Of a DNA stretch of 47,623 nt, positions 2,474 through 4,445 are shown one piece after another; positions within the stretch are counted from its first letter, which is position 1, and each line of letters begins with the position of its first letter. Under the pieces are notes generated by a model. That model was given only the letters and a program-made list of their open reading frames with translations. It did no database searches and was not told the DNA's origin. A program made the position numbers and the translations under genes. The stretch is from the sequence record PQ850630.1, one strand, 5' to 3'. Source of the DNA: Escherichia phage TanjaMuster_Bas81.

Positions 2474-2500
2474 AAATAAAGCCCTCATCTGAGGGCTTAA
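2474..2500 (-). terminator. intrinsic terminator (hairpin aagccctc/gagggctt followed by T-run on minus strand)
   Basis: perfect 8-bp GC-rich stem at 2479-2498 with 4-nt loop; rev-comp is followed by TTTATTTTT; ends the minus-strand two-gene cassette and lies just after the terL stop. Confidence 0.6.
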
Positions 2501-2694
2501 AGCTCATCTCTCAATCTTGATATATCACTCACAGCGGCATACATGTTAGATTTAACGCGTTCAGACTTTTCATCTCTGCATCTGTCTTTTATTATTGAAA
2601 TTGCAATATTGAAAGCCTCAATCTTTGCCTCCCTTATCGCTTGATTCCTTGGTTTCACTTTCGCCTTCGGTATTTCACGAAGGCATCTCGGCAT
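2497..2694 (-). CDS. hypothetical small charged protein (65 aa)
   Basis: ATG 4 nt downstream of the stop of the upstream minus-strand ORF (possible coupling); helical, charged sequence MPRCLREIPKAKVKPRNQAIREAKIEAF...; same frame as C-terminal part of track ORF 2497..2850. Confidence 0.3.
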   Translation of the reverse strand: MPRCLREIPKAKVKPRNQAIREAKIEAFNIAISIIKDRCRDEKSERVKSNMYAAVSDISRLRDEL

Positions 2695-2698
2695 GTAA

Positions 2699-2854
2699 TT
2701 AGTAGGCATTTGATGGGTAGTAACCTTCTTTGATACCAAGCACCTTGGCGATTGTTGGGCCAACTTTCTGGGCGGTAACGATGCCAAATTTAACGTAATC
2801 AGCACCATAAGTTTCGGCAATGTACGCTTCGCATTCTTTTTTAGTCTCAAACAT
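2699..2854 (-). CDS. hypothetical protein (51 aa)
   Basis: manual translation MFETKKECEAYIAETYGADYVKFGIVTAQKVGPTIAKVLGIKEGYYPSNAY; AAGGA RBS 9 nt upstream; not in track (<60 aa). Confidence 0.4.
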   Translation of the reverse strand: MFETKKECEAYIAETYGADYVKFGIVTAQKVGPTIAKVLGIKEGYYPSNAY

Positions 2855-2955
2855 TTCTTTTGTTCCTTAATCTCTTGTCGATAAGATGATTCTACATCAC
2901 CACTATATCCACTTCAACATTTATTATTATTGTTGATAAACCCGCATCACCACAC

Positions 2956-2987
2956 TTGACCAATCTACACCGAGCGCATAGTATAAT
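2956..2987 (+). promoter_or_regulatory. sigma70-like promoter (-35 TTGACC, -10 TAGTAT/TATAAT) overlapping AATCTACA motif copies
   Basis: TTGACC 2956-2961, 17-nt spacer, TAGTAT 2979-2984 (TATAAT 2982-2987); upstream of gene starting 3016. Confidence 0.5.
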
Positions 2988-3015
2988 CTACATCAGGTTT
3001 ATCGGAGATATCACT

Positions 3016-3222
3016 ATGCGCAGCTATGCAGGATTCACACAGGAGGAAAAAGAGCAGGTTTATTCACTGGCACGGGCTGGTGTGCCTGATGACGTGATTT
3101 GCCGTAGGTATGACATCGACGAGGATTTTCTGCTGCGCGTTATTGATGACGTCTTCGTTAACCTGCAAGAGAAGCGCGGGTACAAGGGTATCTGCTGCAA
3201 GAATGATTTTTTGAGAGGGTGA
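3016..3222 (+). CDS. hypothetical protein
   Basis: ORF with GGAGA RBS 7 nt before ATG 3016 (track ORF extends to 2956 without RBS). Confidence 0.5.
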   Translation: MRSYAGFTQEEKEQVYSLARAGVPDDVICRRYDIDEDFLLRVIDDVFVNLQEKRGYKGICCKNDFLRG

Positions 3223-3223
3223 T

Positions 3224-3631
3224 ATGTTTAATAATAAACTAAAGAAAATAATCCGCGATGCTGCGGATAAGAAATACACCAAAAAGATTGATATATCATT
3301 CATTGACGGCACTGGCCTGTACAATCACGCCTGTCACCTGAATGCGGTAAACCGGGCTAGAGATGGGAGTTCGTGCGCAGTGGTTGAGGTTGTGGTGATT
3401 GATGATAAGTCGGTGAGCGCTCATTACATCAATATGCAGTCAGACGGCACATACATCGACTACACGCTTGGGTGGCACTGGTCAGGTGCCGATTACCGAT
3501 TTGTGCGATATGTTCCGTTTACTGAATGGAGTGATATAACAAGTTCGCTTGAGCGCCTCAAGTCAGAACTTTGTAAGCCAGTCAGCAAATGGATGCGCGC
3601 CTTTATGTTAACTAATAACGAAATGTGTTGA
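3224..3631 (+). CDS. hypothetical protein
   Basis: 135-aa track ORF, tightly packed with neighbours. Confidence 0.55.
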   Translation: MFNNKLKKIIRDAADKKYTKKIDISFIDGTGLYNHACHLNAVNRARDGSSCAVVEVVVIDDKSVSAHYINMQSDGTYIDYTLGWHWSGADYRFVRYVPFTEWSDITSSLERLKSELCKPVSKWMRAFMLTNNEMC

Positions 3632-3639
3632 GGTGATTT

Positions 3640-3807
3640 ATGATTATTGAAGGTAAAATTTTTACTGATTTGTCGGTCAGCGAGATAAAAGAAAAATTTT
3701 CAATGAACATCAACCAGGAAGGCGATGCAATTATCATCGACAAACACCAGGCCGCACAGCTCATCGAAGTCCTGCAGCGTTGGATTAATGGTGAGAAGAT
3801 TGAGTGA
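3640..3807 (+). CDS. hypothetical protein (55 aa)
   Basis: manual translation MIIEGKIFTDLSVSEIKEKF...; GAGGTGA RBS; stop overlaps next ATG (TGATG). Confidence 0.45.
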   Translation: MIIEGKIFTDLSVSEIKEKFSMNINQEGDAIIIDKHQAAQLIEVLQRWINGEKIE

Positions 3808-3995
3808 TGAGCGTTTATTTTATTCATGCTGAAGCCGTGCTGAGTAACGGCTGCGTTGCTGAGAAGATAGGAAGAATCGCAATTGCTGATAGCGCCGTGA
3901 CGGCGTTCGATGGATTCTTTTCTGATGCTACGGTTGCCAAGCTACGAGAGCAAGGTATTGAAGTTGTAATTGATAAATTCGAAAAGGTGGAGTGA
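3807..3995 (+). CDS. hypothetical protein
   Basis: track ORF; ATG at 3807 overlapping upstream stop. Confidence 0.5.
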   Translation: MSVYFIHAEAVLSNGCVAEKIGRIAIADSAVTAFDGFFSDATVAKLREQGIEVVIDKFEKVE

Positions 3996-4156
3996 TGGCA
4001 CTATTCTGGTCGTTCTGGATTCCATTTAACTTTATGTTCTGGTGGGCTATGGCCGCCGGAGTGAATGAACCAAGCATGCTACACTTCATGATCGGTTCAT
4101 TTTTCGCGGTGGTAACTGGTATTGTGCCATGTTTACTGTATCAATATTTCAAATAG
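3995..4156 (+). CDS. small hydrophobic membrane protein (53 aa, two predicted TM segments)
   Basis: manual translation MALFWSFWIPFNFMFWWAMAAG...; strong AAGGTGGAG RBS; TGATG coupling with upstream gene. Confidence 0.45.
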   Translation: MALFWSFWIPFNFMFWWAMAAGVNEPSMLHFMIGSFFAVVTGIVPCLLYQYFK

Positions 4157-4405
4157 AGGTGGGGTAATGACAAGGAAATAGGTTCACGAATATTCTATTG
4201 CAGCCAGGAAGCGCGTCGAAGGTGTATGGACGAATCATGGATTGCGCAGCAATAGAGCTAAATTGTTTGCAAAATGTCACCAAGTAGTAATTGGCGACAG
4301 GATTGAGTGTTACGCGTTTAATCAGTGGATGAAGTCTGGTGTTGTTAATAAGGGATAATTACATCAGCACCGCGAGCATCATAATCAGCATTGCCACCAT
4401 GCTAT

Positions 4406-4435
4406 AATCCCATCCAACGTGATGGGATTTTTTTA
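4406..4435 (+). terminator. intrinsic terminator/attenuator hairpin immediately upstream of portal RBS
   Basis: 9-bp perfect stem aatcccatc/gatgggatt, 6-nt loop, followed by TTTTT; ends a ~250-nt ORF-free stretch. Confidence 0.55.
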
Positions 4436-4445
4436 TTGGTGACAT

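Follow-up and report, generated by a model that had tools for sequence, protein, structure and literature searches.

The gene for the large terminase subunit (terL) of Escherichia phage TanjaMuster_Bas81 (sequence record PQ850630.1) ends at position 2473, and the portal gene starts only at position 4446. The intervening 1972 nucleotides (nt) raise two questions: why a cassette of small genes lies between terL and the portal gene, and what a terminator-like hairpin is doing directly in front of the portal start codon. The initial annotation of this DNA, a stretch of 47,623 nt that we refer to as the window, had described the interval as an insertion and had suggested that the hairpin could attenuate portal transcription or mark the 3' end of a small RNA. 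Our analysis leads to a different answer. With a probability of about 0.7, we read the interval as an accessory locus with its own promoters and one amber-broken gene, closed by a conserved terminator with an embedded portal promoter that would act as an insulator.

The 47.6-kilobase (kb) window comprises a siphophage genome that belongs to the Skatevirus / Cedarrivervirus / Swiduovirus cluster, whose members are O-antigen-dependent and have Salmonella, Escherichia and Shigella as hosts (PMC11990801). For its first 7 kb, the closest DNA matches are Sf11, Bas77/78, KFS-SE2, BS5 and seszw, with ~88-91 % identity and a coverage of at most 75 % each. Relatives were assembled from 37 related loci, fetched from IMG/VR by means of the portal protein, and from twelve annotated GenBank regions. 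A gene-by-gene presence matrix spans 44 other loci, and the length of the interval could be measured in the 37 loci in which both of its ends are present.

The hairpin before the portal gene

The 9-base-pair (bp) stem described by the initial annotation as a terminator just before the portal ATG is confirmed. Its arms (4406-4414 and 4421-4429) are followed by seven T residues at 4428-4434, the first two of which lie inside the stem, and the portal Shine-Dalgarno sequence (4438-4442) and ATG (4446) come directly afterwards. The element thus has the form of an intrinsic terminator, a G+C-containing stem-loop followed directly by a U-run. Its predicted folding energy (dG) is -16.2 kcal/mol with flanks (z = -3.2 compared with shuffled sequences).

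The 42 junctions that we sampled from IMG/VR and GenBank contain 11 distinct hairpin cores with four different stems: CCCATC/GATGGG, CCCTC/GAGGG, CCCC/GGGG and, in the seszw-type junctions, ACCCTTAC/GTGAGGGT. All four versions pair, with varying loops, and a run of five to seven T residues always comes next (dG -10.5 to -14.4, z -2.1 to -5.5); one hairpin sequence, that of locus L010, has a mismatch. Pairing was judged by folding each sequence separately, and a column-wise count of covariation was dropped because the shorter 3' arms had been aligned wrongly by MAFFT. In the record of phage Skate, the corresponding portal-side site already bears a terminator annotation from its depositors. Terminator-like sites are also numerous between 2300 and 4700 (5 versus 1.7 +/- 1.4 expected), but conservation in relatives is far stronger evidence for the terminator than this count. 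By sequence, the segment 4406-4434 is a conserved element of the intrinsic terminator type. We found no other plus-strand terminator between terL and 4406.

An extended -10 element built into the hairpin

The 5' side of the hairpin is entered by the sequence TGCTATAAT (4400-4408), which is an exact match to the extended -10 consensus, with TG placed one base before the hexamer. All 42 junctions have TGnTATAAT without exception; in Klebsiella phage VLCpiS13b, the variant TGATACAAT occurs with the same hairpin. In contrast to this constancy, the sequence 5' of the motif falls into at least six unrelated contexts, set by the last gene of the cassette. The stem includes neither the TG nor the first three hexamer bases, and pairing therefore cannot account for their conservation. 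We consider 4400-4408 to be most likely the portal gene's own promoter. With a consensus extended -10 element built into its 5' side, the hairpin is unlikely to have the attenuation of portal transcription as its main role.

The placement of the motif elsewhere in the genome agrees with this assignment. The window contains four TGnTATAAT sites, all on the plus strand and each 29-37 nt before an ATG with a ribosome-binding site, so that the correct strand and distance recur at the heads of other operons (Table 1). The window, swi2 and Klebsiella phage F14 have exactly four sites each, all of them on the structural strand, 28-37 nt ahead of the ATGs of the same four genes, and in F14 they persist although the flanks have diverged. 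The site at 4400-4408 has no -35 match at a distance of 16-18 nt, and neither a -35 element nor a common upstream motif was found for the four sites. Promoters of the TGn/-10 type function without a -35 element (PMC2613000).

Information on the upstream context comes from phage seszw, for which we compared the deposited wild-type and mutant genomes directly. In a viable, engineered genome-reduced mutant (PMC9825161), a homing-endonuclease gene has been deleted exactly up to the TG, and the junction has changed from ...GCGCTTGA|TGATATAAT in the wild type to ...GGTAAATC|TGATATAAT in the mutant. Since the mutant is viable with unrelated upstream DNA, the upstream context is experimentally dispensable. 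At the level of sequence, the element appears independent of a -35 element and of its upstream surroundings.

From the usual spacing of 6-8 nt past the -10 hexamer, and from this spacing only, transcription is predicted to start at 4415-4417 (about A4416/A4417), which is in the loop of the hairpin. The leader predicted from this start (4416-4470) is unusually unstructured (dG -3.9, z = +1.6). In the seszw-type junctions, the portal Shine-Dalgarno sequence GAGG lies within the 3' arm of the hairpin.

Two public records place the portal start differently from the window. In VLCpiS13b (position 1877 of locus L047), the annotated start lies inside the -10 element, and the coding sequence thus runs through the hairpin. 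In swi2 (position 3951 of locus L043), it lies ~160 nt downstream of the conserved ATG.

The terL-portal interval in relatives

The initial annotation had proposed a comparison with relatives, and this comparison locates the interval throughout the clade. An interval with small genes is found in every relative whose portal protein is at least 62 % identical, which includes Skatevirus, Cedarrivervirus and Swiduovirus members and the Klebsiella relatives. Its length ranges from 535 to 2390 nt (37 loci), so that the 1972 nt of the window are unremarkable. In distant phages, by contrast, terL abuts the portal gene, as in Providencia PSTNGR2lys (portal 41 % identical) and Cronobacter ENT47670 (39 %). 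The term "insertion" therefore holds in the sense of DNA that is additional to such distant phages (portal at most 41 % identical), but not as something peculiar to this genome. Because every relative at or above the 62 % level has it, the interval characterises, on the sequences compared, the clade as a whole and does not record an event particular to this genome, and it is the clade's standard variable locus for exchangeable small accessory genes.

The cassette is mosaic in content. A single gene, the first on the plus strand (3016-3222), is common to all relatives; the two minus-strand genes are present in 8 of the 44 other loci, the gene for a 135-amino-acid (aa) protein in 9, and the gene for a membrane protein (3995-4156) in about one third. 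This presence or absence among close relatives is typical of moron-like elements, and the same is true of promoters and terminators that are separate from the flanking operon. In the window, such signals are predicted at consensus level at 2889-2917 (-), 2956-2984 (+), 2498..2479 (-) and 4406-4434 (+), in line with the self-contained small-gene units with promoter-like and terminator-like signals that had been noticed before. The base composition of the cassette (GC 0.40-0.46) compares with 0.44-0.47 for terL and 0.46-0.53 for the portal and Mu-F-type genes. Similar opposite-strand islands lie among the virion genes of the window at ~6873-8540, 10432-11458, 17905-20174 and 24872-25861.

All eight cassette proteins were searched against Pfam, NCBIfam, PADLOC and PHROGs. 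The first three returned no defence-system match and nothing above threshold for any of them, and seven of the eight match PHROG families, all of unknown function.

A disrupted gene upstream of the hairpin

The 249 nt that precede the hairpin (4157-4405) had been described as free of open reading frames (ORFs). They indeed contain no long ORF, but only because a single TAG interrupts an otherwise open frame of 63 codons (4167-4358). This frame aligns without gaps, base for base, with gene gp74 of BS5, the difference in question being GAG versus TAG at codon 5 (BS5 ATGACAAGAAAAGAGGTTCAC, window ATGACAAGGAAATAGGTTCAC). When codon 5 is read as Glu, the product matches phrog_17303 with E = 3e-31. 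Twelve of twelve close homologs start with MTRKEVHEY and have Glu at this position, and the stop is found in the window only. The remainder of the frame is intact and up to 95 % identical to the nearest homolog. The only candidate for an in-frame restart downstream of the TAG is a TTG at 4242, which has no ribosome-binding site. Judging from these alignments, the TAG either arose by a recent nonsense mutation or reflects an error in sequencing. As far as can be read from the relatives, the gene itself is clearly dispensable, since most of them lack it or have a different gene, for an 82-aa membrane protein, in its slot.

The internal inverted repeat reported for this stretch exists, with 11 nt and one mismatch. 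It lies at 4194-4204 / 4246-4256, however, and not at 4197-4209 / 4251-4265, and it is located inside the coding frame. A perfect 10-nt complement, ATGTCACCAA / TTGGTGACAT, links 4274-4283 in the disrupted gene with 4436-4445 in the portal ribosome-binding region. We considered it as an anti-Shine-Dalgarno sequence and judged it to be due to chance; it is not conserved in BS5.

Two further observations concern this part of the locus. A distant member of the same family in another phage (4254-4412 of locus L022) also has an in-frame stop (tblastn alignment ..VWMS*VFN..), which hints at the independent decay of a dispensable gene there. An antisense mini-ORF of 13 codons for a hydrophobic peptide, MVAMLIMMLAVLM (4400..4359, minus strand), occupies the spacer that separates the disrupted gene from the hairpin and is open in BS5 as MMAILIMMCAMLI with five conservative substitutions; only two sequence versions are available, and the mini-ORF may be due to chance.

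Predicted promoters and boxes of the cassette

The promoter-like region that the initial annotation had noted next to the minus-strand genes is located between the two divergent units, at 2855-3015, and contains one candidate site for each of them. The minus-strand site (TTGAAG-17-TAGAAT; TTGACG-17-TAGATT in most relatives) is missing exactly in those relatives that lack the minus-strand genes. The plus-strand site (TTGACC-17-TAGTAT) is kept in 33 of 36 distinct upstream sequences.

The -10 hexamer of the plus-strand site is bracketed by two direct copies of a box, ATCTACAYC (2963-2971 and 2986-2994), an arrangement that suggests an operator. In the window there are 10 copies of the box (GRYGTAGATT when read on the opposite strand), where 0.5 are expected, which is a ~20-fold excess. 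In relaxed form there are about 20 copies, nearly all of which are intergenic and cover the -35 or -10 elements of -35/-10 promoters in either orientation. The occurrence in both orientations, and over -35 elements as well, led us to reject the box as a mere extension of the -10 hexamer. The box resembles an operator at which a phage regulator would bind. On this basis, the phage appears to have two classes of promoters, -35/-10 promoters with the box and the -35-less TGnTATAAT promoters. We have withdrawn the labels "early" and "late" for these classes, as a box-bearing -35/-10 promoter also heads the lysis block.

At two places in the window (23841-23883 and 25898-25945), a minus-strand consensus promoter TTGACA-17-TAGATT is arranged back to back with a plus-strand TGATATAAT promoter, and this arrangement is kept in swi2. 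In both pairs the -35 element of one promoter lies within ~10 nt of the -10 element of the other, and the two should therefore be mutually exclusive for the polymerase.

Proposed working of the locus

We propose that the interval would work as a small transcription island within the packaging and head genes. Two back-to-back sigma-70 promoters of the -35/-10 type (~2889-2984) would drive the cassette, one of them transcribing the minus-strand unit up to the terminator at 2498..2479 and the other the packed plus-strand run. A change from GAG to TAG at codon 5 would have knocked out the gene at 4167-4358, leaving the apparently ORF-free stretch. Polymerase arriving from upstream, from either the cassette or terL, would copy both arms of the hairpin and the U-run and terminate. 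The embedded promoter would start its RNA in the loop (~4416); since such an RNA omits the 5' arm, it could not form the terminator, and it would continue from an unstructured 30-nt leader into the portal and head-morphogenesis genes. In the seszw type, the Shine-Dalgarno sequence would be hidden in a read-through RNA and exposed in the promoter-derived RNA. The module would thus insulate the portal operon from the exchangeable cassette and supply it with a constant promoter and leader. We infer the action of these sites as promoters and terminators in vivo, the start position and the timing of expression from the sequence.

Several points weigh against this reading. The last three bases of the -10 hexamer double as stem bases, and the hairpin may explain part of their conservation. 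The compensatory evidence for the stem comes down to about three to four independent changes across which pairing is kept, and part of the conservation of the junction could be due to its use as a joint for recombination between modules. Four TGnTATAAT sites per genome are no significant excess (2.0 +/- 1.4 expected; 17 of 100 shuffles reach four), and the argument for a promoter therefore rests on the placement and conservation of the sites. The TAG at codon 5 could be a sequencing error, or could be suppressed if the phage were grown on a suppressor host; the tRNAs of the phage itself (Arg-tct, Ser-gct) are not suppressors. No transcriptomes of this phage group were found in the literature searched, which leaves promoter and terminator activity and the start site as sequence predictions.

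Among the other explanations, the hairpin might be an attenuator or partial terminator, with the portal gene read through from terL or from the cassette promoter, perhaps tuned by an antiterminator, and with TGnTATAAT being not a working promoter but, for example, a sigma-dependent pause site. The hairpin and its T-run do exist and are conserved, no plus-strand terminator between terL and 4406 would keep long co-directional transcripts from arriving there, and phage terminators often leak (T7 T-phi is ~80 % efficient, as quoted in bioRxiv 10.64898/2026.02.12.705533). Such an attenuator leaves unexplained, however, why the bases outside the stem, TG and the TAT of TATAAT, are invariant in all 42 junctions, and why the same motif stands without a hairpin before three other structural-gene blocks in three genomes. 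Read-through RNA of the seszw type would moreover bury the portal Shine-Dalgarno sequence in the stem, and relatives with quite different upstream units keep the same module. We therefore regard attenuation as unlikely. The 45-nt module might instead serve mainly as a joint for the exchange of cassettes by homologous recombination, and its resemblance to a promoter and a terminator would be secondary. The boundary between mosaic and conserved sequence does fall exactly at the module, and the other end of the variable region is anchored in the same way by the highly conserved 3016 promoter and gene. A joint needs identity and not pairing, though, whereas the stem changes in sequence and stays complementary, the -10 element is constant while the surrounding bases vary, and the seszw type has the same architecture with a different hairpin sequence. 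These features make a mainly recombinational role improbable, although a role as a joint and a role as promoter and terminator are not mutually exclusive.

A small regulatory RNA that occupies 4157-4405 and ends at the terminator, for instance one derived from a 3' untranslated region and with the inverted repeat as part of its structure, would be suggested by the broken frame in this genome, by the terminator at its end, by the repeat and by the 10-nt complement to the portal ribosome-binding region. None of the features expected of such an RNA (a family match, structure beyond chance or non-coding conservation) was found, however. A search of region 2000-5000 against all Rfam families returned no match at E <= 1, and the predicted fold of 4157-4405 is no better than that of shuffled sequences (z = -1.1; 25 of 200 shuffles are as good). 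In 12 close relatives the stretch is an intact protein gene, from which the window differs by one nonsense codon, most relatives have a different gene in the slot, and the complement is not conserved in BS5. We consider the small-RNA explanation largely refuted, and its probability very low.

The terminator with an embedded portal promoter could also be part of a more elaborate device, in which the terminating polymerase would be freed on the embedded promoter and restart there. The phage would then switch from the -35/-10 promoters with the GRYGTAGATT box to the four TGnTATAAT virion promoters by means of a factor that prevents the -35 elements from being recognised or binds to the boxes, the 3016-3222 protein being the candidate. 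This hand-over is speculative, and we think it quite doubtful. If it were true, the portal operon would be fed by upstream transcription and would always receive a clean, hairpin-free leader.

Relation to known systems

Accessory islands in structural operons, so-called morons, are familiar from lambdoid phages and HK97/HK022. The interval resembles them in that small genes that come with promoter-like and terminator-like signals of their own lie between conserved virion-assembly genes, are variably present and are mostly of unknown function. It differs in being a fixed locus of virulent-type siphophages, in which the helix-turn-helix gene and the terminal module are constant, and not a single gene in a prophage late operon. 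Its base composition, furthermore, is only slightly different from that of the flanks, and several comparable opposite-strand islands occur in the same genome.

The combination of a constitutive-looking promoter and a terminator close together just before the virion genes is reminiscent of pR'/tR' and Q of phage lambda. The lambda terminator is located downstream of the start site, and a short terminated RNA results unless Q acts. The geometry is different in the window, where the -10 element ends at 4408 and the 5' arm occupies 4406-4414. With a start inside the hairpin, the promoter's own RNA could not form the terminator.

In Thermus phage P23-45, middle and late promoters have an extended -10 element and no -35 element, and gp39/gp76 of this phage are an example of proteins that shut off -35-dependent promoters and spare extended -10 promoters (PMC5758890). 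AsiA of phage T4 likewise leaves TGn/-10 promoters unaffected (PMC2613000). The window shares with these systems a two-class layout, in which the -35-less TGnTATAAT heads structural blocks while other units have -35/-10 promoters. In contrast to P23-45 and T4, the phage has no recognised anti-sigma or RNA-polymerase-binding protein, and a promoter of its -35/-10 class is also found in front of the lysis block.

The closest parallel for the overlap itself comes from the T7 class II terminators CJ and VSV, which act as extended-TGn promoters for E. coli RNA polymerase, combined terminator-promoters having been called unexpected (bioRxiv 10.64898/2026.02.12.705533). As in these cases, one short segment contains both a termination signal and an extended -10 promoter. 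CJ and VSV, however, are hairpin-less class II signals for T7 RNA polymerase and were accidental finds, one of them artificial. The module described here would be a natural hairpin (class I) terminator for the host polymerase, with the -10 element over its 5' arm, conservation across the clade and a start in the loop. In a limited literature search, we did not find a natural hairpin terminator with an embedded promoter described.

Much of the locus is ordinary, comprising a variable accessory region, a nonsense-mutated gene and a terminator that had already been annotated once. By sequence, the terminator and the extended -10 element each fit their class, and it is their overlap that is unusual. 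The result is a 45-nt junction module of terminator and promoter with shared bases, which is conserved across siphophages of Salmonella, Escherichia, Shigella and Klebsiella and would be a natural terminator-promoter of the hairpin type. Its logic would be to stop transcription of the cassette and to restart with a fixed leader, and such a compact insulator may be of use in synthetic constructs. For annotation of the group, the four TGnTATAAT sites provide a rule, as they mark the heads of the virion blocks and reveal misplaced portal starts in public records. The close relatives Bas77-80 grow on E. coli K-12 with restored O-antigen, which makes the predictions and the switch between promoter classes directly testable.

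Genes of the interval and genome setting

The features of the interval and its surroundings are collected in Table 1.

Table 1. Predicted genes and signals of the terL-portal interval and related sites in the window (aa, amino acids)
Feature	Position	Strand	Remarks
Small terminase gene	1-441		window start
HNH/AP2-type endonuclease gene	526-1056		
terL	1049-2473		
Putative intrinsic terminator of minus-strand unit	2479..2498	-	8-bp stem AAGCCCTC/GAGGGCTT, then TATTTTTAT; z = -2.8
Small gene, phrog_5305	2497..2709	-	70 aa (65 aa if start 2694); E = 8e-23; in 8/44 other loci
Small gene, phrog_8009	2699..2854	-	51 aa; E = 5e-25; travels with the 2497-2709 gene
Promoter-like site, minus-strand unit	2889..2917	-	TTGAAG-17-TAGAAT; most relatives TTGACG-17-TAGATT
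Promoter-like site, plus-strand cassette	2956..2994	+	TTGACC (2956-2961), 17 nt, TAGTAT (2979-2984)
Helix-turn-helix protein gene, phrog_13301	3016..3222	+	68 aa; three helices, resembling sigma-factor region 4
Gene of phrog_6596	3224..3631	+	135 aa; invariant Cys37, His67, Asp79
Gene of phrog_13627	3640..3807	+	55 aa
Gene of phrog_26739	3807..3995	+	62 aa; start overlaps preceding stop (TGATG)
Hydrophobic protein gene	3995..4156	+	53 aa; probably two membrane helices
Disrupted gene, phrog_17303 family	4167..4358	+	63 codons; in-frame TAG 4179-4181 (codon 5)
Extended -10 element TGCTATAAT, predicted	4400..4408	+	no -35; last three bases are the first three of the hairpin 5' arm
Predicted intrinsic terminator closing plus-strand cassette	4406..4434	+	9-bp stem, 6-nt loop, T-run
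Portal gene, DUF1073 type	4446-5858	+	Shine-Dalgarno GGTGA at 4438-4442
Blocks headed by TGnTATAAT	portal; 14307; 23920; 25975	+	portal; head block from 14307; major tail protein (23920); block from 25975 with tape-measure gene
ATCTACAYC box, examples	2963, 2986, 8556(-), 11458, 20205, 20236, 23841, 25898, 37742, 44584(-)		

The initial annotation had counted six small plus-strand genes, of which five are intact and the sixth is the disrupted gene. It had rightly called the run a chain of coupled genes, which are tightly packed and have TGATG stop/start overlaps at 3805-3809 and 3993-3997. The protein encoded at 3016-3222 is 93-100 % identical among relatives even where the portal is only ~70 % identical, and 53 % identical in the Klebsiella branch. 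Its three-helix helix-turn-helix fold can be superposed on DNA-binding domains of the sigma-region-4 / LuxR type, and the product is probably a DNA-binding regulator. The 135-aa protein, with its invariant Cys, His and Asp residues, is probably a small cysteine peptidase of the papain/transglutaminase-like type, a putative assignment. The 53-aa protein, earlier described as a double-transmembrane protein, is hydrophobic, and two membrane helices are probable. It has no family match in Pfam, NCBIfam, PADLOC or PHROGs, and its homologs are 75-92 % identical.

On the minus strand, two ORFs with a terminator and a promoter-like region are present as initially described, but the start of the downstream gene is probably at 2709 instead of 2694, giving an 11-nt overlap with its neighbour. 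The position 2709 is preferred because relatives are annotated in this manner (swi2 and SeSz-2 have a 213-nt homolog that overlaps its neighbour) and because the PHROG profile covers that length. The equivalent of the terminator at 2479-2498 has been annotated as such by the depositors of Skate. On the plus strand, the same hairpin has no T-run behind it, and terL transcripts may therefore read on, antisense over both minus-strand genes, up to the terminator at 4406.

Downstream of the portal gene follows a head-morphogenesis gene of the Mu-F type. Free-standing homing-endonuclease genes of the HNH/AP2 type are variably present around the packaging genes of this group. In the window, such a gene separates the genes for the two terminase subunits and extends over the start of terL. 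Another is found in seszw between the cassette and the portal gene (3978-4454 of locus L015) and has been deleted in viable mutants, and in BS5 one is located between the portal and head-morphogenesis genes. The tRNA genes Arg-tct and Ser-gct (22809-22978) lie on the minus strand, opposite to the surrounding virion genes, and swi2 has a tRNA-Met at a comparable position.

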